Below are positions 30 to 36,805 of a stretch of DNA of 64,000 nt, one piece after another. The position numbers and the translations under genes were made by a program. How positions within the stretch are numbered: the first letter of the stretch is position 1; every line of letters starts with the position of its first letter. The notes under the pieces are model-generated. The model was not told where the DNA came from. It saw nothing but the letters and a program-made list of their open reading frames with translations, and searched no databases. The stretch covers positions 3,453-67,452 of the forward strand of contig CANJVU010000011.1 of NCBI GenBank assembly GCA_947478525.1. Direction: 5' to 3'. The DNA is from Thiotrichales bacterium. Lineage in GTDB: Bacteria; Pseudomonadota; Gammaproteobacteria; Francisellales; CACEW01.

Positions 30-69
30 GACAATACTAAATGATAATGCCAAGTGAGAGGATTTGAAT

Positions 70-522
70 ATGGCCCATGCAGATTATGTTTCTAATAGCA
101 CCCCTCCAACCCATCATGATGCGGTGCTTGCGCAGCATTCTTATGAGGCATTGAGTCAAAATCTCAAAAGTGGTACGCGCTTCAAAATATACCAGGGTAA
201 AAAAACGGATATTGAAATCCCAGAAGCTGCTGCACGTTTATTGGTAGATATTTTAGCTCAAATGGCAGGCGGTCATGCCGTTGCTGTAACTACTGTTGAA
301 AAAGAATTAACCACACAACAAGCAGCGGATTTATTAAATGTTTCACGCCCCTATTTAGTCAAACTACTGGAAACCAATCAAATTCCACACCGTAAGGTCG
401 GCAGCAAACGCCGCGTGCTTGCGCAAGATGTATTGGCGTTTAAAGAAAAACAAACCAAGCAACGCTTAAAAACACTGGCTGCCTTGTCCAAACAAGCTCA
501 AGAATTGGATATGGGTTATTGA
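70..522 (+). CDS. excisionase/MerR-type helix-turn-helix DNA-binding protein (antitoxin-like)
   Basis: The motif TTQQAADLLNVSRPYLVKLLETNQIPHRKVGSKRRV is typical of the HTH_17 excisionase family. I prefer the ATG at 70 over the TTG at 64 because of RBS spacing. Confidence 0.7.
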   Translation: MAHADYVSNSTPPTHHDAVLAQHSYEALSQNLKSGTRFKIYQGKKTDIEIPEAAARLLVDILAQMAGGHAVAVTTVEKELTTQQAADLLNVSRPYLVKLLETNQIPHRKVGSKRRVLAQDVLAFKEKQTKQRLKTLAALSKQAQELDMGY

Positions 523-3079: not shown

Positions 3080-3586
3080 CTATATCTTAAACTCAAACTT
3101 CGCTTCTGTTACCACCCCAATGATTTTATCTTGGTAGGTAAACGGCAACGGATCTGCGCGATCATCGTTGGTTTGCAGCTCAACGTCATCGTCTTCCACC
3201 ACATATTTGCGCAGCAGGATTTTTTTCAGTTCATGAACATACACCAGCACAAAGCCACGGTTTCTGGGTTTCATATTGGGTTCTACCACCAATAACGTCG
3301 TGAGAGGAAACCGAGGTGCCATGTCGGTGGTGACCACTTCGGTAACAAACGCTGCAGCGCTGGCGTTGGGGGCAATGTTGACGCGCTTGCCGGAGAAATT
3401 CGCCAACAACTCTTTGTGGCGATGGGCTTGCGCAAAAGGAATCAACGGCAATTCTTTTTGTGCCGGTTGCATCGGGATTTTGCACAGGTTATATAGTGCT
3501 TCGCGTTCATGAGTAGGAATCATGGCAGAAAGATCTCCGCATTGATGATCTGTATGCTTAGGTATACCATAAAATTCTGCTTTCAT
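3080..3586 (-). CDS. hypothetical protein, co-directional with and 3 nt downstream of the pentapeptide-repeat gene
   Basis: 168-aa ORF with no competing frame. I recognise no family motif. Confidence 0.55.
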   Translation of the reverse strand: MKAEFYGIPKHTDHQCGDLSAMIPTHEREALYNLCKIPMQPAQKELPLIPFAQAHRHKELLANFSGKRVNIAPNASAAAFVTEVVTTDMAPRFPLTTLLVVEPNMKPRNRGFVLVYVHELKKILLRKYVVEDDDVELQTNDDRADPLPFTYQDKIIGVVTEAKFEFKI

Positions 3587-3589
3587 AAA

Positions 3590-4729
3590 TTAAATTTTCC
3601 TTATTGTTGGGCCTATTGGACCTACCGGGCCTATTTTGACGTCACCGCGCATTTTTCTGCTGAATGCTTCCGCTTCGCCCAGCTCCGGGTCAATCCAGAT
3701 GGCTTCCTGCTGCTGACGAGCATTAAAGTCAACATTAGCTAACACCGCACCATGAAACAGGGTTTTAAATAAATTGGCCTGGTTAAATTGACTATCCGAT
3801 AAATCTGCTTTCATAAAATTAGCGTGCACCAAATTGCAATTATTAAAAATTGTACCATGGGCTTTGGCACCAACAAATATCGCGCCTGACAATACACTTT
3901 TACTAAAATCAGAACCGCTCACCTCTGCTTCCGAAAAGATACCGCTGGTCAAATCCGCACTGGTTAGCGAGGCTTTGGTTAATTGCGCGCGATGAAAAGA
4001 AACCGCTGAAGTTTTTACTCGATCAAAGTGAGCTCCTGTTAAATTGGCTTCTTTAAAAATACAGCCTTGCAAAATGGCGTCATCAAATACCGCATCGGTT
4101 AAATTGGCTGAGGTAAAATTCAAACGGTCCAATGTCAATCCACTAAAATCAACACCACTTAAATTGCATTGGATCAAATGCGTCTCGCTCAATACCTCAA
4201 ACGGCAGAGTGGCCTGACGTAAATCACAATTACCAAAAGCGCCCAGTTGCCAGGTAACCTCTTTAAATTCCAAGTTAGCAAACCCAACGTTCATGTACTG
4301 GCAATTAATAAAGTGAGTCTTGTCAAAAATAAGGTTGGTTCTCTTACTTCCGGTGCTTTGTTCACCTTTCAGGGCACCGCCCTGCCAAGTGACGTGATCC
4401 TGTTCAACATTATTCCAGACACTACCGATAAAAACAGAGTCGATAATCTGCATGTTTTTCCAGGCACCCCCAGTCCAGAAGAAGTTGGTATCCCACTGGC
4501 TGTTTTTGATGGTCACGGCTTCAAAACGGCAGTTGGTAAAATGACAGCGGTCCACCATGCAGTGATCAAAAGTAACGTTTTTAAAAGTACAGTGTTGATA
4601 GTCGCGCTTTTTGAAAGTGATGCCAGTAAATACCTGATTCTCAATTACTTGATTACAGACAGGACCGTATTGGTTTTTCAACTCTTCTAATTCCGCCATC
4701 GCTTTTTCAAAATCCTTGCCAAGATTCAT
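3590..4729 (-). CDS. pentapeptide-repeat protein
   Basis: Long runs of A(D/N)LxX-type pentapeptides, for example ANLTDAVFDDAILQGCIFKEANLTGAHF and ADLSDSQFNQANLFKTLF. There is an N-terminal coiled segment. Confidence 0.85.
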   Translation of the reverse strand: MNLGKDFEKAMAELEELKNQYGPVCNQVIENQVFTGITFKKRDYQHCTFKNVTFDHCMVDRCHFTNCRFEAVTIKNSQWDTNFFWTGGAWKNMQIIDSVFIGSVWNNVEQDHVTWQGGALKGEQSTGSKRTNLIFDKTHFINCQYMNVGFANLEFKEVTWQLGAFGNCDLRQATLPFEVLSETHLIQCNLSGVDFSGLTLDRLNFTSANLTDAVFDDAILQGCIFKEANLTGAHFDRVKTSAVSFHRAQLTKASLTSADLTSGIFSEAEVSGSDFSKSVLSGAIFVGAKAHGTIFNNCNLVHANFMKADLSDSQFNQANLFKTLFHGAVLANVDFNARQQQEAIWIDPELGEAEAFSRKMRGDVKIGPVGPIGPTIRKI

Positions 4730-4855
4730 TACGCGCCCCTTGATTTTGAGGTCTTATTATACTCATTAATTCTTAAAAAGCAAATATTTTAATTGAAATT
4801 TTCTCGAATTTGTTTTAATATGACAAAATAAAGTCAATTAAGTTACGAGAAACTT

Positions 4856-7654
4856 ATGTCCTCCACACCACTTGCTTACATTAACCAATTGGACATTGCT
4901 CAGGTACCAGAAACCAAACCACAGCATTATCAAACACAATTAAGCTGGATGTTTGAACCTGCATCGATAGTCATTGCATCCGGTGAGTTGAAATTCGATG
5001 ACGCCAGCATTCCCACGGTTGACCTGGTCGCAGGTGATCGCTCAGTGATTATCGGCAATTTGCAAAACAATATTGATTATGATGGCACGTTAACGCTCAA
5101 GCTCAATAATGGCCAAACACTGACACAGGAAGTATCATGGGTTAATTTCAAAGGCTTAAACCGCATCACCTGGAAATTCAACATCAACAGCACCGGCCAA
5201 CTGTCCGGTAAATTATTTTGGGGCATGCCAGAGGAGTTATCGGCGCAGGTATTGAGTTTTCAATTAAGCTCCATGCAGATCGATGATAATAATCCTTTTA
5301 GTGTAGCCGCTAATAAAAATGGCATTGCCCTATCCAGCCTGAAACCCTCAACCAAACACACCATTGACTGGATGGCCAAGCTGCGCTCTGGCAACAAGCT
5401 CGACTGCATGCTGATGGCCACCACGCCCGTTGTCGTTATTGCGCCGCCACAACCAGGCCCACGTTCGCTCGGACATCAACACACCATGCAAAACGGTCAG
5501 GTCAATCAGGTGTGGAATATCCCGCAAACCACCTATCACCTGCCGCTCGGGCAAGACCAGGTCACGCATCAAGACAACGCCATGACCTTTGCGCAGACGC
5601 CGCATATCGCCCCAAACAGCCTGGTGAGCGCTGCCGGTAATGATTATGTGCAAAGCTTTAGCCGCGATCAGGTCAATGATTTACCCAGCTACGATCAAGC
5701 CATTCAAAATGCTCCCAAACAAGCGTTGAGCACCACCACCCAAAAAACGCTGACGCATGTTGGTGATAGCCAAGTTACTCATGCCGGCACTACGGTAATC
5801 AACACGCATGTGCTGCACAAACAACATAAAATCGATAGCCCCTATATCAGCAACCAGCACCAGGGCAAACGAATCGAAGTGTTGAATGGCCAAACCTATA
5901 CGCGTAACCACATCAACTACAGCCGCAACAGTAACCAAGAAGTGGCACAACACGGCATGCTCACGCAGCAATATGGCTCCTCAATGACGGACGTGCAAGA
6001 AGTAACGCAAACCATTGGCACGCAACAACTACAAGCGGGGACACAAGTACTGTCTGCACAAACCAAAGTGGTCACACGCAACACCACCATCAATGCCAAC
6101 AGCGTAAATTTTGGTACCTCTCCCACTAAAAAATGGGATCGTATCGCCGGGTGTCCGCAGATTTTTCTAGCTTATCTCACGCCAGATTACTGGTATTTTG
6201 GTAAAAAACCCCAAAGCACCCAGGGGTTTGTGGATATCGGTTATCTCTTTTGTGACTACATCAGAAGCCCAAGCGTTGAAATGGTGGAATTAGGCAACCG
6301 AAAATTGCCGTACCCCACCAGCCAGGCTGATGCTAAAACCAGTGATTGCAGCGTTGTCGCAGAAGCCCAATATCCCACACGCGCAGGTGACAAACTGCTA
6401 ACCGTTAAAACCTTGTTTCCGCCGGTGATTGTGAATTTGCGTACCGATGCCTACAAACCAGATCCCAAAGACTCCAAAAAATTGATCCCGAAAGAACCCA
6501 ACGCGCGCCAAACGCTTTCTGATAAAGAAATCGCCTATTTCACCGCGATGGGTCAAAACGCCACCATCATGATCCACGGTTTTGGCGTCACCTATGGCGC
6601 GTTTGCGAATCAGATTGCTGATATCACCCCACAACAAACCGTTGTAAACATTAATACCCCTAATCCTAAAATGGCACTCACTGTCAGTGTCAGAAGAACC
6701 GATTATCCCAGCACCATCTGTACCACCTTCGATCAACTTAAAAAACGCTATCCTGTTCTCGATAAGGCCAACCTCGTACTACCTGCATCATTAGATCCGC
6801 AAGATGACAGCTGTCTCAATGGTACCGATGCCCACGCCTGGTTGGTGCATATAGAAGACAACCTCAATCGCGCCAGCAACCAATTTGACGGCAGCGATTA
6901 CAGCAAATACCAACGCGTTATCACCGTTACTTGGTCAGGGGATGTGTTTCTCCCCAATTATATTGACTCAGAAGAAGTTGCGGATGCTGCGGGTATACAA
7001 CTGGCGCCACTGCTCAAACAGCTCATCGATGCCGGTATCAAAATCAATATCATTGCCCACAGCATGGGTAATCGAGTGCTTTTAAAAGCGCTAGAAACCC
7101 TGGCAGCGCTGGGTGGAAATTATCGTCAAAACTCCATTGACCATATTTTCATGTGGGACGCTGCGGTGCCTGATACTGCGCTGTCAAACGATCCGACAAA
7201 AGATTTAAGCGCTAAACGCAATTGCTACTTCAAAGATGCAATCCTGCCGCCGAAGAAGATTACTGTACTCTATTCCCAAAATGATGAAGTGTTAAAACAT
7301 CTCTATACATGGGCGAATGATGAATATCAGGATACAGATCAAGTTGGAAGAGTTGTCTGGAATGACGTTGCTCCAGAGTTCGCACAACCCATTCCAGAAG
7401 ATAAAGTTGTACCTGCATTGGGGTGGAGTGGACCGGATGATTCTACGATTGCTGAATTAGGCAAAAAGCTGATTCAAGCAGATTTAACCAAATGGACCAA
7501 GGGTTATTCGTTTTTAGAAAGCCACTCTTACATGCAGATACCGAATGCTGTTATTATGGAGCATGCTTATAAAACTTGGATTATTAACCAAAACTACGGC
7601 ATGCAATCATTTGGAGTTTATAATAGAGCGTTATTTGACAAAGGTATGAGCTAA
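4856..7654 (+). CDS. large multidomain protein with a C-terminal DUF900-type alpha/beta hydrolase (putative lipase/esterase) domain
   Basis: 932 aa. HGFGV lies near nt 6570. VTWSGD...NIIAHSMGNRVLL carries a GxSxG nucleophile elbow, with the Ser codon at 7061-7063. The central ~200 aa are rich in Q/T/N/H/V and look beta-strand-like. Confidence 0.8.
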   Translation: MSSTPLAYINQLDIAQVPETKPQHYQTQLSWMFEPASIVIASGELKFDDASIPTVDLVAGDRSVIIGNLQNNIDYDGTLTLKLNNGQTLTQEVSWVNFKGLNRITWKFNINSTGQLSGKLFWGMPEELSAQVLSFQLSSMQIDDNNPFSVAANKNGIALSSLKPSTKHTIDWMAKLRSGNKLDCMLMATTPVVVIAPPQPGPRSLGHQHTMQNGQVNQVWNIPQTTYHLPLGQDQVTHQDNAMTFAQTPHIAPNSLVSAAGNDYVQSFSRDQVNDLPSYDQAIQNAPKQALSTTTQKTLTHVGDSQVTHAGTTVINTHVLHKQHKIDSPYISNQHQGKRIEVLNGQTYTRNHINYSRNSNQEVAQHGMLTQQYGSSMTDVQEVTQTIGTQQLQAGTQVLSAQTKVVTRNTTINANSVNFGTSPTKKWDRIAGCPQIFLAYLTPDYWYFGKKPQSTQGFVDIGYLFCDYIRSPSVEMVELGNRKLPYPTSQADAKTSDCSVVAEAQYPTRAGDKLLTVKTLFPPVIVNLRTDAYKPDPKDSKKLIPKEPNARQTLSDKEIAYFTAMGQNATIMIHGFGVTYGAFANQIADITPQQTVVNINTPNPKMALTVSVRRTDYPSTICTTFDQLKKRYPVLDKANLVLPASLDPQDDSCLNGTDAHAWLVHIEDNLNRASNQFDGSDYSKYQRVITVTWSGDVFLPNYIDSEEVADAAGIQLAPLLKQLIDAGIKINIIAHSMGNRVLLKALETLAALGGNYRQNSIDHIFMWDAAVPDTALSNDPTKDLSAKRNCYFKDAILPPKKITVLYSQNDEVLKHLYTWANDEYQDTDQVGRVVWNDVAPEFAQPIPEDKVVPALGWSGPDDSTIAELGKKLIQADLTKWTKGYSFLESHSYMQIPNAVIMEHAYKTWIINQNYGMQSFGVYNRALFDKGMS

Positions 7655-7656
7655 CC

Positions 7657-8772
7657 ATGCGTAAGCATTTTAAAAAAATCATAGCTGGCACTGTGCTATT
7701 AATTGTTATTTTTATCACCGCCGTGATCTCTTTGTATCAACACTTTTTTGATGCTGGTGTTGTGGATATGCTGAGCATTTCTAGTGATGGAAAATACGTC
7801 ATTAGCACCGATGAAAAAGAATGGGCAGTATTATGGAATTTGCAAACCCATACCAAAAAAGTTCTTGATAAGCATGCGCATATCTTTAGTGCTTATTTTA
7901 TCCCGAACACCGATGAATTTTTATGGCAGAGCCAAGACAAAACCATTCATATTGAAAATGTGGATGGCCAAATCATCAAAGAATTCAAGTTACCTTTTTA
8001 CATTTATGGCATCGCCATGCCAAAAAATTCGGAACATTTTATGGTGGGTGATATTGGTGATGGCCAATATTATTGTCATTTAACTCATTGTGTTATGATT
8101 TCAAAACCTGGCAGCTCCGACCCCAGTGTATTTTTAGCTGATCAACCTCATGTTTATTCAATTGATAACGCGAATAATCGGTATGTATTAGGTTCAAATC
8201 TGTGGGGAGTTTATTTATGGGATCTGAATACAGGCAAGATTGTTCATCATTATCAAGGAAATGTCGGCAAGACCTTTGCAACATTAAGTCCAAATGGTAA
8301 ATATGTAGTTTCTGCTGATGAAGATAGCTGGCAATTTGTTTGGGATACTGGAACTGGCCAACCCTTGGTACAAAATTTACTGGCTTGTCCTATTATTAAA
8401 GTCAATGAAGATAGTTCTGTTATTCTTGACAAAAACGTTGTACAACCTCCTGGAGATTATTCTGGCTCAGGAGATCACCCTAATTATGCTTTTCTAACTG
8501 TAAAGTTTGTTGATGATACACATTACCTACTCTTTCCAACTTATACGCCCTACGCCATCCTTTATGAAACCACTAATCCAAAACCATTAAAATACTTGCC
8601 ACTCGGCCGTCATCCAGTGCCATCCGTCAGTTATTATCAACGTGACGAAGCAATTGATACTTCTCCCAGTGCGCATATTTTGGTGACGGGTAAAGATAAT
8701 GAAGGTGGGATTCTGGTTTATCACTATGACCCGAAAAATCAGACGCTAACAAAAGTATGGGATGGTGTATAA
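7657..8772 (+). CDS. membrane-anchored WD40-like beta-propeller protein
   Basis: The ATG lies 2 nt after the stop of the hydrolase gene. The N-terminal TM segment is IIAGTVLLIVIFITAVISLY. Repeated blade motifs are SSDGKYVISTDEKEWAVLWNLQT, NRYVLGSNLWGVYLWDLNTG and SPNGKYVVSADEDSWQFVWDTGTG. Confidence 0.7.
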   Translation: MRKHFKKIIAGTVLLIVIFITAVISLYQHFFDAGVVDMLSISSDGKYVISTDEKEWAVLWNLQTHTKKVLDKHAHIFSAYFIPNTDEFLWQSQDKTIHIENVDGQIIKEFKLPFYIYGIAMPKNSEHFMVGDIGDGQYYCHLTHCVMISKPGSSDPSVFLADQPHVYSIDNANNRYVLGSNLWGVYLWDLNTGKIVHHYQGNVGKTFATLSPNGKYVVSADEDSWQFVWDTGTGQPLVQNLLACPIIKVNEDSSVILDKNVVQPPGDYSGSGDHPNYAFLTVKFVDDTHYLLFPTYTPYAILYETTNPKPLKYLPLGRHPVPSVSYYQRDEAIDTSPSAHILVTGKDNEGGILVYHYDPKNQTLTKVWDGV

Positions 8773-10153
8773 GCAATCTATGCCGAATAAATATATTTCC
8801 TTTTTTCTTTTAATCGCCTTATGTTTACCTGTGGCGATTGCCTGTGTAGACCTTATGGCTGTAAGTGTTGCGCTTAATATAATAATGCGTGAGTTTTCAG
8901 TTTCTGCCGCTGAATCCCAGTGGTTAATCAGCGCTTATACAATAGGCTCAGCCTCATTTCTAATTTTAGTTGGTAAATTGGCTGACCTATATGGCCGTCG
9001 AAAATGGTTGATAATTGGAGTCGCTCTTTTTGGTGCAGCCTCTCTCTTAGCTGGATTTGCTCCTTACATGATTGTTTTAATTATAGCGCGGTTTTTGCAA
9101 GGAGTGGCAAGCTCCATTATGATGACAACGGTAGTTTCAATTATTATTCATCACTTTATTGCAGAGCAACGTACACATGTGCTCGCAAAATGGGTGTTAT
9201 CTTTAGGGGTTGGCTTAGCCTTAGGTCCTCTAGTAGGAGCCTTAATATTACATTTCACGAGTTGGAGATTCATTTTTTTTATCAACGTTCCCATTTGTTT
9301 GTGTGCATATTACTTAATTACAAAATACGCTCCAGAATCCAGAGACACCACAAACAAAATTAAAATAAGCTGGGGAGAGAGCCTTCTTCTTAGCATTACA
9401 TTGATTTTATTGGTGTCTATTCTTTCTGCAAGTGAAGACTGGGGGTGGCGCTCTCTACTCATGTACGAACTCCTAGTTGGTTTTTTACTTTTAATGGTAA
9501 GTTATGCGGTTTTGTTACGATTGAAGGGAAGTACCCTTATCGACTTATCTTTATTTAAATTAAAAAATTACTTTAAAGGCAGTTTTTGTGGATTCCTCTC
9601 ATATTTCTGCATGTACGGATGGCTATTTATTTTTGCACTATACCTACAAAAATATTGCGGCATGAGCCCTATTGAAACCGGCATGATGTTCGTTTCATAT
9701 GCGATTACCTCAGCGGTGTGCGCTCAATATATGGCTAAAATTATTAAAAGCTGGGGGAAAAAGTTTCCCATTCTTATAGGCTTTTCAGTGGCGTTAATTG
9801 CTTTTGTATGGATGTCAAAAATTAATTCTTTCACTCCAATTTGGCAATTGATTTTAATGTCAGCACTTCCTGGCATTATGATAACTTTTGTTAATGTTGC
9901 TTCTATGAATCTAGCGATGAGTGAAGTTCCTTCAGAAAAAACAGGCATTGCTTCGGGTATTTTTTTCACCATACGGTGGCTTGGCGGTTCAATTGGCGTA
10001 GCCATTATTACTTTATTATTTGAGAATGCTAATTATTTTAAAGGATTAAGTAATATAAAAGCAGCGTGTTTAGGGCTGGCTGTTTTTGCCACGCTGGGCT
10101 TATTTTTAGGTGCAAGTATAAAAGCGCCAATAAAACTCATGCCCCGCGAGTAG
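8762..10153 (+). CDS. MFS transporter, DHA2 (EmrB/QacA-like, ~14 TMS) family
   Basis: MFS motif GKLADLYGRRKWLIIG and many hydrophobic segments. An alternative start is the ATG at 8780. Confidence 0.85.
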   Translation: MVYKQSMPNKYISFFLLIALCLPVAIACVDLMAVSVALNIIMREFSVSAAESQWLISAYTIGSASFLILVGKLADLYGRRKWLIIGVALFGAASLLAGFAPYMIVLIIARFLQGVASSIMMTTVVSIIIHHFIAEQRTHVLAKWVLSLGVGLALGPLVGALILHFTSWRFIFFINVPICLCAYYLITKYAPESRDTTNKIKISWGESLLLSITLILLVSILSASEDWGWRSLLMYELLVGFLLLMVSYAVLLRLKGSTLIDLSLFKLKNYFKGSFCGFLSYFCMYGWLFIFALYLQKYCGMSPIETGMMFVSYAITSAVCAQYMAKIIKSWGKKFPILIGFSVALIAFVWMSKINSFTPIWQLILMSALPGIMITFVNVASMNLAMSEVPSEKTGIASGIFFTIRWLGGSIGVAIITLLFENANYFKGLSNIKAACLGLAVFATLGLFLGASIKAPIKLMPRE

Positions 10154-10173
10154 ATATTGATTTATCGGGAACA

Positions 10174-10860
10174 TTATAACTTTAGCGGATTGATTAAAAC
10201 TCTATCATCATAAACATCCGCTTTTTCATATATTTTCAAAAACATGACCAATACACTCAGAAGTGGCGTAATTAGAGCTATCACAGCCAATTCAAATAAA
10301 AAATTATGTAATGAAAGTTCCAATATTACTGAGAATTTAACTACTCCAGCATATGAACCTATAAGCACTAATGTTGCGCTTGTTATTACGGCTATACTGG
10401 ACGAACCCATGCTTCTAAGCCAAAAGAATCTTCCGCGAATCAACGCCTTCCATTTTGCGATGAGATATCCATTGATAAGGCTCGCACAAAATACAGCAAT
10501 GGTACCAGAAATTAAGCCTCTCATATAAAACCATTGCAAATTTTGATAATCGATGGGAGTTGCTATGTTTGAGGCAACGGGGAAAGAAAGTGCAAAATAA
10601 AGAAAAAGTCCAAAAATGTAATCACATAAAAGTCTGAACCATATAATTCGTTTCAGCATTTTAAACCCATAAACCTCAGCAATGCTATCGCCAATAGGAT
10701 AGCATAAAACATATACTAATGGCGATGCGGGAAGAATGAACGAAAAAATATGCACATACCGATACCCTAGTAACGTTGAAGCAATATCAGCTGTGAGGTA
10801 AAGCATGCTAATAAAAGTAAGAAGTTTATATTGAGTTTTTTCAGAATGGTTTAATTCCAC
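10174..10860 (-). CDS. VUT/YhhQ-family (DUF165) queuosine-precursor transporter-like membrane protein
   Basis: Polytopic membrane protein with a YPIGDSIAEVYG motif characteristic of YhhQ-like proteins. Confidence 0.65.
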   Translation of the reverse strand: MELNHSEKTQYKLLTFISMLYLTADIASTLLGYRYVHIFSFILPASPLVYVLCYPIGDSIAEVYGFKMLKRIIWFRLLCDYIFGLFLYFALSFPVASNIATPIDYQNLQWFYMRGLISGTIAVFCASLINGYLIAKWKALIRGRFFWLRSMGSSSIAVITSATLVLIGSYAGVVKFSVILELSLHNFLFELAVIALITPLLSVLVMFLKIYEKADVYDDRVLINPLKL

Positions 10861-11020
10861 TTTAATTGACCTATATTTCTAAAATTTGAACCTTAGTAAA
10901 ACATATTTAAAGGGGTTGTGCAATCTGAATGGTGCAATCGGAAGCTAGCTACTCTGAGTTTAATTTGTTAACATAGAAATAGATGCTATGCATATGAAAG
11001 ACTCACTTTAAGGCATTTAA

Positions 11021-11950
11021 ATGAATAAACAAAAACATCAGCAAAATATTTTTACGTTATTTACCAAGATCTTTAGACAAGAATTGGGAAGGAATAATGA
11101 ACTTCAAGTGTCGTATCGGATTATTAACTTACCTACTGAAAAAGACACACATGTTCACTTCCAAATCATTGGCAAAGGAATTGTTCTTAAAATGACTCCC
11201 GCAAAAATCATGCGCGATGAAATGCTTATGGGATTTAGCAAGGCTGATATCGCATTGATTACGCATTATGGCACCAAAGCTGAGTATCAAGCAGAGTCAA
11301 ATAAAAAACGAGGCATCTTGTCTCGAATCGTTCAGCAACTTTTTGGTGATAAACAATCCGCTTTTTTAATTCATGACGCCGAGCAAGAAAAAGTAATTGA
11401 AAAAACTGCACAGGAACTATATTTTGATCCTTCTACTAAAGAACGTTTTAGCAGTGCTGATGCATTGGTAATTGGTTACAGTGCTGCTGAGGAACGCTAT
11501 CGACAATTAGTAGCTGAAACAAAATTTAAGCCAGAATATGAGATGCTCTCGATTGGAGACGGAGCTGTATTTTATCGTCATCACGAAACACAGCATGTGG
11601 TAAATCAATCTGCTGAAACATTATTCAACACTCCCAAAGTATTCAAAAAATTTAATGCTGATGACAGGAGTCTGATTAGTTATACTGCTGCCGAAGCAAG
11701 ATATCAGAGGATTATGAAGGAAACGAAGGCACAGATTAATTTTAAACTGTGTAATACTGCTCCGGATGATCATAATTGCTGGCAGTACCAATCTCTAAGC
11801 ACTGGCGATTTACTGATGACTTCAGTTGATGCACTATTTTATGATACTAATACCTTGAAGCAATTTAGTGCTGATGACCTTAGTCTTATTGCCTTTGCAG
11901 CGGGCGAGCTTTCTAAAAAGAGACAACTGGAACTTGCGACTACGCATTAG
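11021..11950 (+). CDS. hypothetical protein built from four tandem copies of a ~60-70 aa domain shared with the small ORFs at 12811 and 13938
   Basis: Four repeats each end in a similar stretch:
- MLMGFSKADIALITHYGTKAEYQ
- ERFSSADALVIGYSAAEERYRQL
- KKFNADDRSLISYTAAEARYQRI
- KQFSADDLSLIAFAAGELSKKRQL. Confidence 0.7.
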   Translation: MNKQKHQQNIFTLFTKIFRQELGRNNELQVSYRIINLPTEKDTHVHFQIIGKGIVLKMTPAKIMRDEMLMGFSKADIALITHYGTKAEYQAESNKKRGILSRIVQQLFGDKQSAFLIHDAEQEKVIEKTAQELYFDPSTKERFSSADALVIGYSAAEERYRQLVAETKFKPEYEMLSIGDGAVFYRHHETQHVVNQSAETLFNTPKVFKKFNADDRSLISYTAAEARYQRIMKETKAQINFKLCNTAPDDHNCWQYQSLSTGDLLMTSVDALFYDTNTLKQFSADDLSLIAFAAGELSKKRQLELATTH

Positions 11951-12637
11951 TTAATAATCGGTGCGATGCTGCATCATGCGCGCAATGATAGAATCCCCTA
12001 CCCCCATTTTATGAGTTTGATAACGGGGATCTTGCGCATATAAAAACTTACCGCTGTCGCTCAACACATATTGCCGGAAAATGGCATCTGGCAATTTATT
12101 GATTTTCGCCAATACATAATCACCATCACGCGGTGAAACGTCTGGGTCGAAAATTAAAACCGATCCTTCTGGAAAGCGCCCACTCATGGCTGTACCTTGA
12201 GCGTAGATCACAAAAGCGCGCGACCCTACATTAATATCTAACGCCAGAGTTTCACCCACAAAGTTTTCGACATGTTTATCGAAATCAACGGCTTCGTGAT
12301 AGCTCAAAATAGGTAATTTGCGCAGTCCACTGTTATTGGTTGCTGGCTTGCTGGCAAGCATTTCACCTTTGCTAAACTCCAGCCAATCATATTCAACACC
12401 AAGACGCTGTGCTAATTCACGGCGACGAGCTTTCGCTGGCAGAACTAAACCATTGACCCACTTACCTGCGCCAGCATGAGACAACAAAAACATTTCGGAA
12501 ACATATTGAATACGTCCGTGGTTTTTAGGAGGGATGCCGTTATGATCTAACGCTTGATTCAAACGCGCAGCAAAAGCCAGCAGATGATCGTTATCTGCCG
12601 GTACTTTTTCAACATCGCTTTCTTCATTATGCACCAT
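11951..12637 (-). CDS. phage CI/LexA-like repressor (N-terminal HTH + C-terminal S24 peptidase-like domain)
   Basis: The C-terminal half aligns with lambda CI (FPEGSVLIFDP..., GDYVLAKI, SDSGKFLYAQDPRYQ). The dyad positions read QGTAMS and AIFRQY instead of GxSM and K. The gene is transcribed divergently from the small-ORF module. Confidence 0.85.
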   Translation of the reverse strand: MVHNEESDVEKVPADNDHLLAFAARLNQALDHNGIPPKNHGRIQYVSEMFLLSHAGAGKWVNGLVLPAKARRRELAQRLGVEYDWLEFSKGEMLASKPATNNSGLRKLPILSYHEAVDFDKHVENFVGETLALDINVGSRAFVIYAQGTAMSGRFPEGSVLIFDPDVSPRDGDYVLAKINKLPDAIFRQYVLSDSGKFLYAQDPRYQTHKMGVGDSIIARMMQHRTDY

Positions 12638-12763: not shown

Positions 12764-12810
12764 GGCATTGTTGTACCGAAACTCACTTTAACTAACACAG
12801 GGGAATGACC

Positions 12811-13047
12811 ATGACTACTTATCAATACCAACTGATCGCTGTTAACCAATCTTTATACACTGATACCAAAATCATTTTTGAAATTCGCAGCGATGCAGGG
12901 TTCACCATCAAATTGCCAGCACTGGAAGTTGCGCATAATGCGGTATTGATGGAAAACATGTCTCCTGCAGATATCAAACGTGTGATGTATTTTGCGGGTG
13001 TATTGGAAGGCACTGCGCAAGCGAAAGAAGTAGAAGTTGCTGCCTAA
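12811..13047 (+). CDS. small protein A1 (78 aa), single-domain member of the repeat family found in the 309-aa protein
   Basis: I chose the start by homology with copy 2 (AGGGGA, 7 nt, ATG). The protein differs from the 13938 paralog at 10 of 78 residues, all conservative. Confidence 0.7.
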   Translation: MTTYQYQLIAVNQSLYTDTKIIFEIRSDAGFTIKLPALEVAHNAVLMENMSPADIKRVMYFAGVLEGTAQAKEVEVAA

Positions 13048-13937: not shown

Positions 13938-14174
13938 ATGAACTCATATCAATACCAACTGATCGCGGTTAACCAATCTTTGTACTCAGATACTAAAATC
14001 ATTTTCGAAATTCGCAGCGATGCAGGTTTCACCATTAAATTACCAGCACTGGAAGTGGCGCATAATGCAATATTGATGGACAACTTGTCTCCTGCAGACA
14101 TCAAGCGTGTAATGTATTTCGCCGGCGTATTGGAAGGCGCTGCGCAAGTGAAAGACGTAGAAATTGCTGCCTAA
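13938..14174 (+). CDS. small protein A2 (78 aa), paralog of A1
   Basis: AGGGGA RBS 7 nt upstream. About 87% amino-acid identity to A1. Confidence 0.7.
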   Translation: MNSYQYQLIAVNQSLYSDTKIIFEIRSDAGFTIKLPALEVAHNAILMDNLSPADIKRVMYFAGVLEGAAQVKDVEIAA

Positions 14175-14322: not shown

Positions 14323-14399
14323 TGGTCGGAGTGACAGGAATCGAACCTGCGGCCTCTGCTTCCCGAAAGCAGCGCTCTACCAAGCTGAGCTACACTCCG
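14323..14399 (-). tRNA. tRNA-Pro (anticodon CGG)
   Basis: The reverse complement reads CGGAGTGTAGCTCAGCTTGGTAGAGCGCTGCTTTCGGGAAGCAGAGGCCGCAGGTTCGATTCCTGTCACTCCGACCA. It has a 7-bp acceptor stem, a D-loop (AGCTCAGCTTGGTAGAGC), the anticodon loop TTCGGGA, a T-arm (GGTTCGATTCC) and an encoded CCA. Confidence 0.92.
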
Positions 14400-17339: not shown

Positions 17340-17404
17340 TTACTCGATTTACATCTCTACACCACAGATTATAATGGTATCAAATAATCAATCGATTGAG
17401 AACC

Positions 17405-19777
17405 ATGATGAAAGTAGCAGTACTGTGCGGCGGACCTTCGTTAGAACGAGGCATTTCGTTAAACTCTGCACGCTCGGTGTTGGATCATTTGTCCAGCGAC
17501 CAAATTGAGATTGTGCCAATTTATTTTGACGTCACCGGCAAGGCGTATCATATTTCCTGCTCGCAGTTGTACAGCAACACACCGTCAGATTTCGATTTCA
17601 AACTTAAGCAAACTGCAAAACCGCTGACACAAAAATCATTAATCACTCTGCTCAAAACGGTAGACATTGCTTTCCCGGCGATGCATGGCCCGTTTGGTGA
17701 AGATGGCGGCGTACAGACGTTGTTGGAACACAATGGCATTCCATTTATTGGTTCTGGCTCCGAAGCCTGCCAGCTAGCGTTTGATAAATATATTTCCAAC
17801 GAACATATCGCAGAGGCCGGGTTTTTCACCCTGCCGTCGTTGTTGATTGAACCACAAGACACCCAGATCAAGAAAAAACTCACCGCGTTTTTCAAGCAAC
17901 ATCAAATTGAACGCGCGATTGTTAAACCCGCCAGTGGCGGTTCGAGCATCGGCGTTTATTCAGTATCTACCGTCGCAGATGCAATGGAACGTATTGCCTT
18001 TTTATTCGAACAACGGATGGATGCCCGCCTAGTGGTAGAGCCCTTCGCACAAGGCGTTGAATTTACCGTGATTATCTTAGAAAATCGCTTTGGCTTACCC
18101 GTCGCCCTACCCCCAACAGAAATTGAAACTGATTATACCGAACACCAGATTCTCGATTTCCGTAAAAAGTATTTACCCACCCGCCAAGTGATCTGGCACT
18201 GTCCACCACGCTTTGAAGATAAAGTGATTGAAAAAATTCAGGCACAGGCCGAACAATTGTTTGCACTGTTTGGCATGCATGACTTTGCAAGGTTTGATGG
18301 CTGGGTGATGCCCGATGGCAACATCTGGTTCTGCGACTTTAACCCCATTAGCGGTATGGAACAGAACAGCTTTTTGTTCCAACAGTCCTCGCGCATTGGC
18401 TTTACGCACGCTGGCGTGTTGCGTCACGTCTTGCAAACCGCGTGTGCGGGTTATGATATTCCGTTCCCGGTACCAAAACCTAAAACCAAACAGCAACCGC
18501 GTAAACAGGTCAATGTATTATTTGGTGGCCAAACCTCTGAGCGCCAAGTATCACTGATGAGCGGCACCAATGTCTGGCTGAAATTACGCGGCTCAGAAGC
18601 CTATCAACCGCAACCCTATCTGCTGGATATGGAGGGCAACGTCTGGCACCTGCCGTATCATTTGGCGCTCAACCACACGGTCGAAGAAATTACCGAAAAC
18701 TGCAAAAACTATCCGCAGGCCAAACAACGCTTACAAAGCTTTGAGCAACGTACCCGCATTCGGTTAGGCTTACTCGATCAAAAAGACCCCATCGAATTTT
18801 TTGAACCAAAACGCATGACCTTGAATGAATTTATCAAACAATCGGAATTTGTGTTTATCGGCCTGCACGGTGGTTTTGGCGAAGATGGCACGCTGCAAGG
18901 CATGTTGAGCAAACAAAAAGTTTTATTCAACGGCTCCAACGAAAAAATCTCGGCGCTGTGTATGGACAAATTCGCCACCGCGACGGCGATTCGTAGACTC
19001 AAACTCAACGGTGTTGATGCCATTATCAACCGCGCCATGGATACCGCCGATTTATTAACGCTAAACGATACGGGTATTAAAAAATTATGGGCTGCGTTGC
19101 AAACCGAATTAGCCACCTCGACCATGATCGTGAAACCACGAGCAGATGGTTGTTCGACCGGTGTCATTCATATCTACTCGGCACAAGATTTACAAAGCTA
19201 TGTCAACCTGCTGCGCCTGAAAGCGACGTTTGTACCGAAAGATACCTTCCCGCATCAACCGTTGATCATCGAGATGCCACTACAAGCGCCAAAATCGGTG
19301 CTGTTTGAACGCTTTATCGAAACCGACGTGCTGCACGTCAAGAACAACCAATTGCATCACCAGGCGAAAACCGGCTGGGTGGAAATCACCATTGGCGTGA
19401 TCATGCAAAATGGCAAGCTGCATGCACTCAACCCCAGCATCACCATTGCTGAAGGCGAAGTGCTATCAGTGGAAGAAAAATTCCAGGGCGGTACCGGCGT
19501 TAACATTACCCCACCACCCGCTGAGTTGGTTGATGCCAAAACGCTGCAGAAAATCAAAACCAATATTGAAACCCTGGCCACCAACATCGGCATTGAAGGT
19601 TACTCACGCATCGATGCGTTTATTCACCTCAAAACCGGCGAACTACAGATTATTGAAATCAACACGTTACCAGGTTTAACACCTTCAACGGTTTTGTATC
19701 ATCAGGGGTTGGCGGAGAAATCGATCCTGTTTCCACAGCAATTACTGGAACAGTTGGTGAAAAACAAAGGGTATTAA
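17405..19777 (+). CDS. fused tandem D-alanine--D-alanine ligase-like (two Ddl_N + ATP-grasp modules) protein
   Basis: Module 1: KVAVLCGGPSLERGISLNSA, MHGPFGEDGGVQ, VKPASGGSSIGV. Module 2: VNVLFGGQTSERQVSLMSG, LHGGFGEDGTLQG, VKPRADGCSTGV, IIEINTLPGLTPSTV. Start is the ATG at 17405 or 17408. Confidence 0.8.
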   Translation: MMKVAVLCGGPSLERGISLNSARSVLDHLSSDQIEIVPIYFDVTGKAYHISCSQLYSNTPSDFDFKLKQTAKPLTQKSLITLLKTVDIAFPAMHGPFGEDGGVQTLLEHNGIPFIGSGSEACQLAFDKYISNEHIAEAGFFTLPSLLIEPQDTQIKKKLTAFFKQHQIERAIVKPASGGSSIGVYSVSTVADAMERIAFLFEQRMDARLVVEPFAQGVEFTVIILENRFGLPVALPPTEIETDYTEHQILDFRKKYLPTRQVIWHCPPRFEDKVIEKIQAQAEQLFALFGMHDFARFDGWVMPDGNIWFCDFNPISGMEQNSFLFQQSSRIGFTHAGVLRHVLQTACAGYDIPFPVPKPKTKQQPRKQVNVLFGGQTSERQVSLMSGTNVWLKLRGSEAYQPQPYLLDMEGNVWHLPYHLALNHTVEEITENCKNYPQAKQRLQSFEQRTRIRLGLLDQKDPIEFFEPKRMTLNEFIKQSEFVFIGLHGGFGEDGTLQGMLSKQKVLFNGSNEKISALCMDKFATATAIRRLKLNGVDAIINRAMDTADLLTLNDTGIKKLWAALQTELATSTMIVKPRADGCSTGVIHIYSAQDLQSYVNLLRLKATFVPKDTFPHQPLIIEMPLQAPKSVLFERFIETDVLHVKNNQLHHQAKTGWVEITIGVIMQNGKLHALNPSITIAEGEVLSVEEKFQGGTGVNITPPPAELVDAKTLQKIKTNIETLATNIGIEGYSRIDAFIHLKTGELQIIEINTLPGLTPSTVLYHQGLAEKSILFPQQLLEQLVKNKGY

Positions 19778-34537: not shown

Positions 34538-36805
34538 TTAATTGACTGGGAACGGCACCGAGCCTACAGTGCTTGAAGCATTATAACTATTGGCACTGCT
34601 TGGACATTCTTTACCAACCGCCTGCTCATTGGCACAGGTCGATACGACAATCTGTCCTGCTGGCTGATTCACATCTGCCACCGGCAAAGTTAAGGTACCA
34701 CTACTACCACTGCCCAAAGATTGTCCTGACATGATATCGGGCATTGAAGCCTTGGTATTACCGATTGGGTTAATGTAATAAACTGCGCTCGAAGGCTGGC
34801 CTTTTGGAATCGTCCAGGTCGCCGTCAACGCACAACTGGTAGCACCACAGGTAAACCCAGTACCGTAACCCGTAATTGTCACTGCTTGTAACTGCAAATT
34901 AGGCGCAGGAGAAGATGCACCCTGCATTTGGTGTCCACCGATATACTTATTCAATGCATTAGGGCACTCGTATCGATTGACACTCGCTGTATCACTGGGA
35001 ATGCACGCATAAACCGAGGCTTGTACAAGCACCGGAGCAGGCACTTGCTTAGGACTCAGCGGGAAGGTAATGGTTTGCGAGGTAGCCGTGCTATCCGCAA
35101 GCTCAAACGATGGCGCAGTAAAGACCACACTCGTTGCGACCGGTGAAGGCGTTGGTAATGCAAAGTACTTAACCGAGCCATCTTGACCCTTAGGATTAGT
35201 CCAATTAACCGTCATGGTACAACTGCTGGTAGTACAACTAGCATTGGTCAAGGTAACCTTTTGCGCCGCAAATACGTTATTCGCATGCGGGTATTCATTA
35301 TAATTAGGCCCTGGCGCTGGCACATGCAGATCACCCACATCACCAAAGGTAATCAACACAGGCTCAACCGTCGCCCCCGGACTATTGTTATTTACCGAAA
35401 TCGTACCATCCTGTTTCAACACATCGTCAAACGCAAAGGCATAAACCGGATTGGCTGAGGTTTTATGAATAGCCTGCGCGTACAAATCAAACCAGGGACC
35501 CTCACCCGGCGCATAGGCCGATTTAACATAGGCTTTACCGGATAGAACGGTATTTGGCGTGTAGTAAGTACTCTTATTGTTTTCAAAGTAACTGGCATTC
35601 AAATCACCCGCCATCGGCAGGAAGCCAACTGAAAACGCCGAGGTTATGTATTTCACGATCACACTACGCACGGTGCCATCTGGCGTATCCAACGGCACCT
35701 GTCCTGGACCAAAAAAGTCGCCGGAAGTCGCTTGATTCAAATCAATCGTCACCGCCATGCTGTCTGCTGGCGTGGCAGGCGCATTGTTAAACACCCATTT
35801 ACCCGCTTGGTTCACAGAACCGGTAAATACGTACGCGTTAGGATCGGTGCCACTGCCTAATTGCACCCACTCTGGGTATTTCTTGGCATCCACTTCGCTG
35901 CAATCAATGGTAATCGCATTGGCCGGATTGCTGTAATAGCTGCTCAACGTATTCAGATAATTAAATCCAGTTGATGAGGTAAGATAGTTATTATTAAAAG
36001 TCGGCGAGGTATTGGGCGCATCAATCCGCAATATCGTCTTGTATTGATCAACACTGGTTACTATCAGACTCGACCAATCGCTATTGCCTGAATTATCTAA
36101 AATATTTTCAATGCTATGGATAATATGATGACGAGTTTGTCCGGTATATCCATTGTTCTGAGTAACATGGGTGGTAAGGTCAGTATAGGCCAACGCAATC
36201 GGCAAACCAAAATCATCAACTGAAGTGGTGTCAATCCAGAATGTATTCGTATTATCATAGGTATATTCAAATTTGTCATAGATCAAATTATAGTTACCAT
36301 CGGCGGTATTGGAAAGGCTCGGTGCCTGAATGCTCACAGTACCGTCTGCAGCTAGCGTCATAGGAATATCCAATGGATAATTTAATGACACAAATGCACG
36401 ACCACTGATCATATTGGGAACATAAATAATTACTGGCTCCCCTACATTGGGTTGCAGGCTTGCCATACTATAGGAAAAGTCCGCCGCCCTGGTGCTCATG
36501 CTGATATTATCACACGTCGCGACCCAGGCATTATAACCAGCGATACTGGAATCGGGTGTTTTAGGTAATTGCAATAAACATTGTGGATTAGGAGAATTCA
36601 TTTGCTTACCAGTGAACAACAGATAAACATTAGTTACCCCCTGCACCGTAGCACCACTGCCGATATTATTTTGAATCTGAATTGGAAAATACCCCGCCAT
36701 CGCCGGAACTGGATTTACGGTTGACGTAGCCGCATAAATATTGGCTGAAAGCGCAAGGCCAACAGCCAGGCCGATGAGATTAACATTTTTGATTGATATT
36801 GACAT
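34538..36805 (-). CDS. secreted GH64-like beta-1,3-glucanase-domain protein with two C-terminal beta-rich repeat modules
   Basis: Signal peptide ...LSANIYAA. GH64-like blocks: ISGRAFVSLNYPL, IYDKFEYTYDNTNTFWIDTTSVDDFGLPIAL and YAFAFDDV. Two Cys-containing repeats of about 90 aa follow (VTLTNASCTTSSCTMTVNWTNPKGQ and VTITGYGTGFTCGATSCALTATWTIPKGQ). Confidence 0.6.
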   Translation of the reverse strand: MSISIKNVNLIGLAVGLALSANIYAATSTVNPVPAMAGYFPIQIQNNIGSGATVQGVTNVYLLFTGKQMNSPNPQCLLQLPKTPDSSIAGYNAWVATCDNISMSTRAADFSYSMASLQPNVGEPVIIYVPNMISGRAFVSLNYPLDIPMTLAADGTVSIQAPSLSNTADGNYNLIYDKFEYTYDNTNTFWIDTTSVDDFGLPIALAYTDLTTHVTQNNGYTGQTRHHIIHSIENILDNSGNSDWSSLIVTSVDQYKTILRIDAPNTSPTFNNNYLTSSTGFNYLNTLSSYYSNPANAITIDCSEVDAKKYPEWVQLGSGTDPNAYVFTGSVNQAGKWVFNNAPATPADSMAVTIDLNQATSGDFFGPGQVPLDTPDGTVRSVIVKYITSAFSVGFLPMAGDLNASYFENNKSTYYTPNTVLSGKAYVKSAYAPGEGPWFDLYAQAIHKTSANPVYAFAFDDVLKQDGTISVNNNSPGATVEPVLITFGDVGDLHVPAPGPNYNEYPHANNVFAAQKVTLTNASCTTSSCTMTVNWTNPKGQDGSVKYFALPTPSPVATSVVFTAPSFELADSTATSQTITFPLSPKQVPAPVLVQASVYACIPSDTASVNRYECPNALNKYIGGHQMQGASSPAPNLQLQAVTITGYGTGFTCGATSCALTATWTIPKGQPSSAVYYINPIGNTKASMPDIMSGQSLGSGSSGTLTLPVADVNQPAGQIVVSTCANEQAVGKECPSSANSYNASSTVGSVPFPVN

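Follow-up and report, generated by a model that had tools for sequence, protein, structure and literature searches.

Gene organisation of the locus

A 64,000-nucleotide (nt) stretch of contig CANJVU010000011.1 (assembly GCA_947478525.1) from a Thiotrichales bacterium, hereafter the window, contains two adjacent and co-oriented genes, the first of which encodes a 932-amino-acid (aa) protein ending in a DUF900-type alpha/beta hydrolase domain, and the second a 371-aa, membrane-anchored WD40 beta-propeller. The two genes are best explained as a probable antibacterial effector–immunity module of type VI secretion system (T6SS) lineage, in which the hydrolase would be the toxin and the propeller its predicted periplasmic immunity protein. 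Four open reading frames (ORFs) around a 126-nt divergent intergenic region (4730-4855; Table 1) and a 2-nt gap between the hydrolase and WD40 genes had been described in a first-pass annotation, made from the sequence alone, and both descriptions were borne out: the stop codon of the hydrolase gene (TAA, 7652-7654) is followed by CC and then directly by the ATG of the WD40 gene. An in-frame TAA lies 15 nt 5' of the ATG at 4856, so that the hydrolase ORF cannot extend further in the 5' direction. Ahead of it, a sigma-70-like match (TTGAAA-17-TAATAT) is present at 4793-4821 (+), which is weak evidence, since such matches are similarly frequent in shuffled sequence.

The organism is uncultured, and the 932-aa protein is found on metagenome contigs only; several runs, among them SRR6787039, ERR3761215 and ERR3761219, contain identical copies. 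Two of the runs are cited in a paper that deals with Sweden and an invasive cyanobacterium (PMC10244341). A word-indexed protein search with the full 932 aa retrieved only the protein itself, and the same search with the N-terminal 467 aa gave no match.

Table 1. Position of the hydrolase–WD40 gene pair, its predicted functional parts and the divergent neighbouring genes in the window
Feature	Position (nt)	Strand	Remarks
168-aa ORF on the pentapeptide side	3080-3586	(-)	S24-peptidase-like
Pentapeptide-repeat ORF, 379 aa	3590-4729	(-)	Pfam Pentapeptide_4, E 5e-37
Divergent intergenic region, AT-rich, 126 nt	4730-4855	.	presumed promoter region of the hydrolase gene
932-aa effector gene (predicted)	4856-7654	(+)	N-terminal VgrG-extension-like module, linker and predicted DUF900-clade alpha/beta hydrolase toxin domain
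N-terminal module, aa 1-420	4856-6115	(+)	homology to the C-terminal extension (aa ~559-981) of VgrG P0062
Two fn3-type beta-sandwich domains, aa ~57-230	5024-5545	(+)	P0075 matches, AlphaFold model
Q/T/N/H/V-rich region, aa 231-420	5546-6115	(+)	aligns with the C-terminal end of P0062
Effector cassette, aa 468-932	6257-7651	(+)	short beta-rich pre-domain and alpha/beta hydrolase
Ser736 codon (AGC), predicted nucleophile	7061-7063	(+)	A-H-S-M-G motif, invariant in 20/20
Asp810 codon, predicted catalytic acid	7283-7285	(+)	invariant (D291 of alignment A1), post-strand loop in the model
His890 codon, predicted catalytic base	7523-7525	(+)	H371 of alignment A1, HS.M motif, >=90% conserved
371-aa membrane-anchored WD40 beta-propeller, predicted periplasmic immunity protein	7657-8772	(+)	downstream synteny in 13/17 loci
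N-terminal signal-anchor helix of the WD40 protein, aa 8-26	7678-7734	(+)	mean Kyte-Doolittle value 2.9

The hydrolase domain and its predicted catalytic triad

The Pfam family DUF900 (PF05990) covers aa 573-814 of the 932-aa protein with a score of 40.1 bits against a cut-off of 20.5 (E 3.7e-10), and the three motifs by which the first-pass annotation had recognised a hydrolase of this type are located at aa 574 (HGFG), aa 693 (WSGD) and aa 732 (IIAHSMGN), the last containing the serine that it had placed at codon 7061-7063. In the following, homologous proteins carry P numbers and genomic loci L numbers. PF05990 is also present in the homologues P0002-P0020. Searched exhaustively with HMMER, a set of 1.84 billion representative proteins yielded 287 matches, nearly all of them to aa ~468-932, and aa 468-929 share 46-49% identity with P0021 and P0002. 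The cassette formed by aa 468-932 corresponds to stand-alone effectors of ~480 aa that are located after vgrG in other genomes.

A family alignment of 20 sequences (A1) shows no variation at Ser736 and Asp810, and conservation of His890 in 90% or more of its members. The same alignment was used for an AlphaFold2 model of aa 520-932, whose residue numbers follow that query and which is confident, with a predicted local distance difference test score (pLDDT) of 87.8 and a predicted template modelling score (pTM) of 0.88. The serine lies between strand 210-216 and helix 219-232 of the model, in the position of a nucleophile elbow, the aspartate in the loop after strand 280-287, and the histidine in the loop after strand 353-357. 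By order and topology, the model puts Ser736-Asp810-His890 at the canonical triad positions of alpha/beta hydrolases, and these, together with the G/A-x-S-x-G elbow motif, are the features of a predicted serine esterase or lipase-type enzyme. The Ser-Asp-His triad, on which the first-pass annotation had made its hydrolase depend, is thus found in the modelled structure.

A Foldseek search of the PDB with this model gave as its first match the T6SS phospholipase Tle3 from the Tle3/Tli3 complex (8boz; E 4.8e-3, probability 0.96, TM-score 0.23), with lipases and Legionella PlaB next in order. PDB sequences searched with a profile yielded nothing significant (the best alignment, at E 0.15, was to pancreatic-lipase-related protein 2, in its nucleophile elbow), and the full 932-aa sequence had no match among PDB chains. 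Because of the fold matches to Tle3, lipases and PlaB, the alignment with the pancreatic-lipase elbow, and the precedent of the phospholipase cinquedea, which is discussed below, lipid hydrolysis is the most likely activity of the domain.

Linkage of the hydrolase clade to VgrG

The relatives of the cassette are connected to T6SS spike proteins in two ways. Six long homologues (P0023, P0024, P0025, P0029, P0059 and P0061) carry the Pfam domains Phage_GPD, Phage_base_V, Gp5_trimer_C or DUF2345 upstream of a C-terminal DUF900 domain, with PAAR additionally present in two of them, and a conservative BLAST test counts at least 62 of 156 representatives as VgrG-fused. The close clade in species-representative genomes is made up of the loci L006-L024, in which the hydrolase is either fused to VgrG (L008, L013, L017, L018, L020, L021, L023 and L024) or encoded directly after vgrG (L006, L009, L011, L012 and L016). 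The nearest genomic relative, P0002 (46% identity), belongs to a vgrG–hydrolase–WD40 operon, the junctions of which overlap or measure 3 nt, whereas neither VgrG nor WD40 occurs in the distant, generic DUF900 loci (L025-L084). Since the close loci are VgrG-fused or vgrG-adjacent and the generic ones have neither VgrG nor WD40, aa 468-932 are assigned, on sequence evidence, to a distinct, T6SS-specialised clade of DUF900. Fusion or linkage to vgrG, hcp or PAAR is thus a property of the domain family, with no such gene seen beside the copy in the 64-kb window.

The vgrG–effector–immunity islands of this clade sit amid housekeeping genes and distant from T6SS core clusters, and a lack of core genes near the window pair is therefore to be expected. 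Relatives of the module occur in metagenome-assembled genomes (MAGs) of Gammaproteobacteria, Coxiellaceae and Desulfuromonadales. At a Desulfuromonadales locus the module has a GC content of 45% against 59% in its surroundings, which shows that it is transferred horizontally as a unit.

The WD40 partner and its predicted role in immunity

The 371-aa protein has its best PDB match in 2ymu (E 5e-23), next to Tako8 (1.6e-21) and WDR5 (about 3e-10), and matches many Pfam beta-propeller families, such as Beta-prop_NWD2_C (33.6 bits against a cut-off of 33). Its strongly hydrophobic segment, aa 8-26, is preceded by the basic residues R2, K3, K6 and K7, a distribution that predicts an N-in, propeller-out topology, in line with the WD40-like protein with an N-terminal transmembrane (TM) helix and a periplasmic orientation that had been proposed at first.

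Of the 17 informative loci, meaning those with enough downstream DNA, 13 have the gene for a full-length homologue of this protein (27-48% identity) immediately after the hydrolase gene, and WD40 homologues are confined to the close-clade loci, so that the co-occurrence of the two genes, which had been named as a check, extends to other genomes. Three tandem genes for WD40 immunity-like proteins follow the VgrG-PAAR-DUF900 gene of L018 (12127-15934), and two hydrolase–WD40 modules lie ~7 kb apart within one MAG in L022 (2537-5332 and 9593-12573), one of the hydrolases being fragmented. An export feature is found at the N-terminus of every WD40 homologue, in the same place and of varying type: a signal anchor in the window, L006, L008, L017, L018, L021 and L022, a lipobox in L009, L011, L012 and L014, and a cleavable Sec signal in L016 and L023. 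As each homologue has one of these three features, the partner is predicted to be periplasmic.

The conserved periplasmic location by way of interchangeable signals, the tandem amplification and the translational coupling argue that the WD40 protein is a dedicated partner, predicted to confer immunity against a toxin acting in the periplasm. An unrelated housekeeping propeller, which the first-pass annotation had kept in view as a way for its proposal to fail, does not agree with an export-signalled partner that recurs in the relatives, and a periplasmic protein that is anchored or a lipoprotein is a poor fit to a cytosolic chaperone. With its adjacent, co-oriented and periplasm-targeted partner (2-nt gap, anchor and synteny in 13 of 17 loci), the pair has the layout of Tle/Tli-type effectors and their immunity proteins.

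WD40 partner genes lie 3-7 GC points below their own hydrolase genes in most loci. A separate acquisition of the low-GC WD40 gene of the window was considered and rejected, as the same difference recurs across most of the loci.

The N-terminal module

In the representative library, the N-terminal module of the 932-aa protein (aa 1-~420) matches two proteins only, P0075 and P0062. The latter, from a Joint Genome Institute (JGI) metagenome, is a 981-aa VgrG (loci L085 and L087) whose Phage_GPD domain spans aa 23-287, and it is matched by aa 20-412 in phmmer (E 3.8e-43) and by aa 1-389 in tblastn (29% identity, E 3e-48). The alignment, at 29-31% identity, covers the whole extension of P0062, up to its stop codon, and the two proteins have in common the fn3 domains, a Q/T-rich segment and a terminal '...TTI..VNF' motif. 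The next gene after that for P0062 is Hcp-like, with neither a hydrolase nor a WD40 gene in the vicinity; a scan of JGI metagenomes for the module recovered only the same P0062 locus again. A further motif, H-x-G-x-R-x-x-V-[LI]-x-[GA]-Q-x-Y, occurs at aa 335-348 of the window protein (nt 5858-5899) and in P0062, and this weak 14-aa motif is also seen in a protein of 213 aa whose gene lies just ahead of the P0062 vgrG (L087 3823-4464; BLAST E 0.03).

The second match, P0075, is an array of 26 fn3 domains according to Pfam, 21 segments of which are matched by aa ~57-230 of the window protein, which are therefore taken to be two fn3 domains. The N-terminus of about 200 aa that had been described as unrecognised thus contains two fn3-type domains. 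An AlphaFold model of the module, based on a two-sequence alignment, has a mean pLDDT of 38.9, with aa ~37-193 all-beta at pLDDT 60-80, aa 194-467 left unmodelled, and the Q/T-rich region below 30. The first-pass annotation had also described a Q/T/N/H/V-rich region of short repeats, of which the compositional bias stands (these five residues make up 48% of aa 231-420) and the periodicity does not, since Tandem Repeats Finder detected no tandem or periodic repeat in this region at the DNA level.

There is no methionine in the 932-aa protein at the point where stand-alone effectors such as P0002 start, which indicates that the N-terminal module and the toxin domain are truly one polypeptide. 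The protein is not itself an evolved VgrG, as it has no Phage_GPD, Phage_base_V or other spike-core Pfam domains. Judged by these alignments, its architecture is that of a VgrG-extension module, a linker of ~47 aa and an effector cassette, without the spike core.

Proposed mechanism and alternative explanations

The 932-aa and 371-aa genes are thus proposed, with a probability of roughly 0.7, to constitute a T6SS-lineage antibacterial effector–immunity module. The hydrolase would be injected into the periplasm of rival Gram-negative cells and would degrade an ester substrate of the envelope there, most likely membrane phospholipid, in the manner of Tle-type phospholipases. The WD40 propeller would be held at the inner membrane of the producer, on the periplasmic side, and would there bind and block toxin that sister cells deliver. 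For the N-terminal 420 aa two readings are offered: they would fasten the toxin to a spike whose gene lies at another site of the genome, or they would be a remnant of an evolved VgrG from which the gp27/gp5 core has been lost. A secreted lipase-type toxin with a periplasmic immunity protein, in the layout of Tle/Tli pairs, had also been the suggestion of the first-pass annotation, and it gains support from the synteny, the modelled triad, the predicted export signals and the VgrG links of the relatives.

Several observations weigh against this explanation. The window copy is the sole family member found without a fused or adjacent vgrG, and, as had been noticed before, no VgrG, Hcp, PAAR or T6SS core gene is seen in the 64-kb window, for which the scan took in the annotated genes of the first 14 kb and, past position 14,000, ORFs of 150 aa or more; a tblastn search with six VgrG cores likewise had no match in the window, where only the P0062 extension aligns. 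The fold search, which had been recommended earlier, placed Tle3 first and is otherwise weak, as Foldseek found no PDB neighbour at E <= 0.001 and the structural matches to lipases have a TM-score of about 0.23; the phospholipid substrate of the hydrolase is a prediction. The N-terminal module has only one other homologous locus, gave no usable AlphaFold structure beyond the fn3 domains, and would dock to a spike only hypothetically. The WD40 gene is absent from 4 of the 17 loci (L007, L010, L013 and L015); in L007 (1953-2282) and L010 (1443-1775) its position is taken by a multi-TM protein of ~110 aa, possibly a second type of immunity to this family of toxins. Finally, T6SS delivery, toxicity and protection by the WD40 protein are, for this organism, predictions.

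The alternative that survives best makes the 932-aa gene a leftover, namely the 3' two-thirds, of what was once an evolved VgrG, composed of core, fn3/Q-T extension and DUF900, whose core was lost by rearrangement; the toxin would then no longer be exported, and the WD40 gene would be kept as orphan immunity against neighbours with the same toxin. The window without vgrG agrees with this, as does the alignment of the module, which runs from the first residues of the ORF and from residue ~559 of P0062, just past the point at which a spike core would end. Many members of the hydrolase family are indeed VgrG fusions of 1100-1500 aa, and the retention of orphan immunity genes is common in T6SS biology. 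The ORF, however, is intact with all of its catalytic residues, starts exactly at the module boundary behind an AT-rich upstream region of its own, with no vgrG remnant upstream, and encodes a protein that is identical across independent samples, whereas an intact gene for a useless cytoplasmic toxin would be expected to decay. Such a relic, with a toxin that is no longer exported, is considered rather unlikely.

It is far less probable that the hydrolase is a host-targeted effector of an amoeba-associated bacterium, translocated by Dot/Icm or another type IV secretion system (T4SS) and acting on eukaryotic lipids, with the WD40 protein as its regulator or chaperone, a possibility that had been raised in the first-pass annotation. 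The window does encode eukaryote-like proteins, namely a 1015-aa OTU-domain protein and pentapeptide-repeat proteins, one relative of the module comes from a Coxiellaceae MAG, and some T6SS lipases also act on host membranes. Against this stand the partner, which is predicted to be exported or anchored to the periplasm in every homologue and is sometimes a lipoprotein, its tandem copies, which are a hallmark of immunity genes, the secretion links of the family, all detectable ones of which are to VgrG or PAAR, and a window in which no T4SS genes were seen. Least credible is a chance adjacency of an ordinary housekeeping esterase and an unrelated beta-propeller, which the breadth of DUF900, with its many non-T6SS members such as L025-L084, might suggest, but which is effectively refuted by a specific synteny that spans distant taxa (13 of 17 loci) and is not seen at the generic DUF900 loci, and by the translational coupling across a 2-nt gap.

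Comparison with known effector–immunity systems

Lipase effectors of the T6SS, of which six families now have names, are major weapons against both bacteria and hosts. Tle1-Tle5 reportedly stem from the work of Russell et al. in 2013. Tle1 corresponds to DUF2235, Tle2 to lipase class 3 (Lipase_3), Tle3 to DUF3274, Tle4 is PGAP1-like, and Tle5 is a phospholipase D with HxKxxxxD motifs, and the immunity proteins of Tle1-5 are lipoproteins or of the Sel1 type. The window pair resembles Tle/Tli systems in having an alpha/beta hydrolase with a serine nucleophile and no signal peptide, from a family linked to vgrG and PAAR, in the adjacent, periplasm-targeted predicted immunity gene, in the tandem immunity copies of some loci, and in its best structural match, Tle3 (8boz). 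It differs in that a Pfam scan of the hydrolase at E <= 1 gives DUF900 only, no Tle chain appears in the PDB sequence-profile search at E <= 10, the Foldseek match to Tle3 is weak, and the window copy is without vgrG. A sixth family, Tle6 (the Slp / Enterobacter cloacae Tle group), has been proposed together with ankyrin-repeat immunity proteins, in contrast to the WD40 propeller of the window (PMC11470151). The pair is therefore Tle/Tli-like, yet outside the named families Tle1-6, with Tle1-5 set apart by the commonly given domain assignments listed above.

The closest counterparts are evolved VgrG-DUF900 and VgrG-PAAR-DUF900 proteins and vgrG–DUF900–WD40 islands of uncultured Gammaproteobacteria and Desulfuromonadales (for example P0023 and P0061; L006, L011 and L017), known from sequence records only, which share the hydrolase clade (32-49% identity), the WD40 partner (27-48% identity), the gene order and the coupling. 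Unlike them, the window protein is without gp27, gp5 or PAAR parts and without a neighbouring vgrG, and none of them has its N-terminal module of fn3 domains and Q/T-rich region. The C-terminal 420 aa of VgrG P0062, on the other hand, are homologous to aa 1-420 of the window protein, but there the module stands after the VgrG core and ends the protein, and the next gene is Hcp-like.

Cinquedea of the archaeon Haloferax larsenii is a secreted bactericidal phospholipase A, as has been demonstrated experimentally (bioRxiv 10.64898/2026.06.10.730825). Like the proposed toxin, it is an alpha/beta hydrolase, one that attacks bacterial membrane phospholipid, and its homologues fall mostly into Pfam DUF900, the family assignment by which the two are likened. 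In contrast to the window protein, it is archaeal, freely secreted and encoded in a single-gene transcription unit, whose genomic context gives no clue to partner genes.

A propeller fold in an immunity role has a parallel in Proteus mirabilis PefD/PefE, which is cited in a preprint (bioRxiv 10.1101/2023.03.28.534661) as a T6SS effector with a predicted beta-propeller immunity protein. The likeness lies in an immunity gene for a predicted beta-propeller and extends to the description of the fold given there, whereas PefD, going by the same citation, is a PAAR-domain effector and not a DUF900-type hydrolase. In the earlier survey of Zhang et al. (2012), the beta-propeller fold had so far not been seen in immunity proteins. 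No link of DUF900, PF05990 or COG4782 to T6SS was found in the literature, the coverage of which was mostly without subscription journals and supplementary catalogues, where the family may be listed unnamed, and a literature search on fn3 domains in VgrG extensions found nothing relevant. It is suggested tentatively, as a possibility that is open to doubt, that the DUF900 clade with WD40 partners may constitute a new lipase-like T6SS effector family outside Tle1-6 with beta-propeller immunity, and that the window copy may represent a new delivery format, in which a transplanted VgrG C-terminal extension (fn3-fn3 and Q/T-rich) would join a spike encoded elsewhere.

Neighbouring genes and genomic context

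On the other arm of the divergent cluster, the pentapeptide-repeat protein was confirmed as such by Pfam (Table 1), and the 168-aa protein, which had been left without a family, scores 30.7 bits against a cut-off of 23.3 for Peptidase_S24; it had no match among PDB sequences. It is paralogous to a 228-aa S24-like protein encoded at 11951-12637 (-), with 26% identity. By eye, the nucleophilic serine of the GDSMxP motif seems to be replaced in both, with TTDMAP in the 168-aa and GTAMSG in the 228-aa protein, and the 168-aa protein is without a helix-turn-helix (HTH) domain. Both are probably non-catalytic proteins of the LexA/UmuD fold. NCBIfam models gave generic pentapeptide matches and noise only.

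The last 11 nt of the WD40 gene are shared with a major facilitator superfamily (MFS) gene downstream of it (8762-10153). The pentapeptide-repeat, S24-like and MFS genes were each considered as members of the module and rejected, as none of them co-occurs with it in any related locus. They are bystanders, and conservation as a unit is limited to the hydrolase–WD40 pair; the divergent four-gene cluster that had been taken together at first does not hold, with the pentapeptide and 168-aa genes never accompanying the pair elsewhere. A role in anti-phage defence was also dropped, as PADLOC models matched none of the four proteins.

The window is chromosomal, as it contains rpoD, dnaG, rne, plsX, fabH, lpxK, kdsB, tsaD, lptD, surA and obg. 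The GC content is 35-38% across 7657-12000, which includes the WD40, MFS, Vut_1 and 309-aa genes, as compared to 45% for the window. A tRNA-Pro(CGG) gene at 14323-14399 (-) adjoins the accessory region, at the far end of which, at 64-522 (+), lies an HTH_17 (AlpA/excisionase-like) gene. The two hint at an integrated element, and a check for an integrated island at the tRNA-Pro gene found no tRNA-derived direct repeat and no integrase within 16 kb.

Other genes of the window are unusual in themselves. The 1015-aa protein encoded at 25573-28620 (-) has a C-terminal OTU-like cysteine protease domain (Pfam E 1.4e-11) after ~830 aa without a Pfam match, which suggests a eukaryote-like deubiquitinase candidate and a possible host-associated (Legionellales-like) lifestyle. 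The 309-aa orphan encoded at 11021-11950 (+), with no Pfam match, consists of about four internal repeats of ~70 aa with the motif F-[SN]-A-D-D-x-S-L-I-x-[FY]-x-A-x-E, one similar unit of which is present in an 80-aa ORF at 12805-13047 (+). An unusual tandem fusion of 793 aa, encoded at 17396-19777 (+), comprises two complete D-Ala-D-Ala ligase units (Dala_Dala_lig_N and Dala_Dala_lig_C, twice). Finally, a 755-aa protein encoded at 34538-36805 (-) has a GH64 beta-1,3-glucanase domain (E 3.6e-30), rarely met with in Gammaproteobacteria; the cell walls of fungi or protists may be its target.

Significance

The general kind of system to which the pair would belong is already well known, and the VgrG-less architecture is what is unique here. 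If the pair is a relic, it would mainly document the decay of effector–immunity cassettes. If the proposed DUF900 family with WD40 immunity is real, it would represent a new enzyme lineage among the T6SS lipase effectors as well as a new way of inhibiting such toxins, and structural biology would gain a new case in a propeller that plugs a lipase. A copy without VgrG that carries a VgrG-extension module bears on how cargo effectors recognise the spike, and also on the movement of cassettes between fused and free formats. For part of the large DUF900 family, whose name stands for unknown function, the analysis suggests a role as an envelope-directed phospholipase toxin, in agreement with cinquedea.

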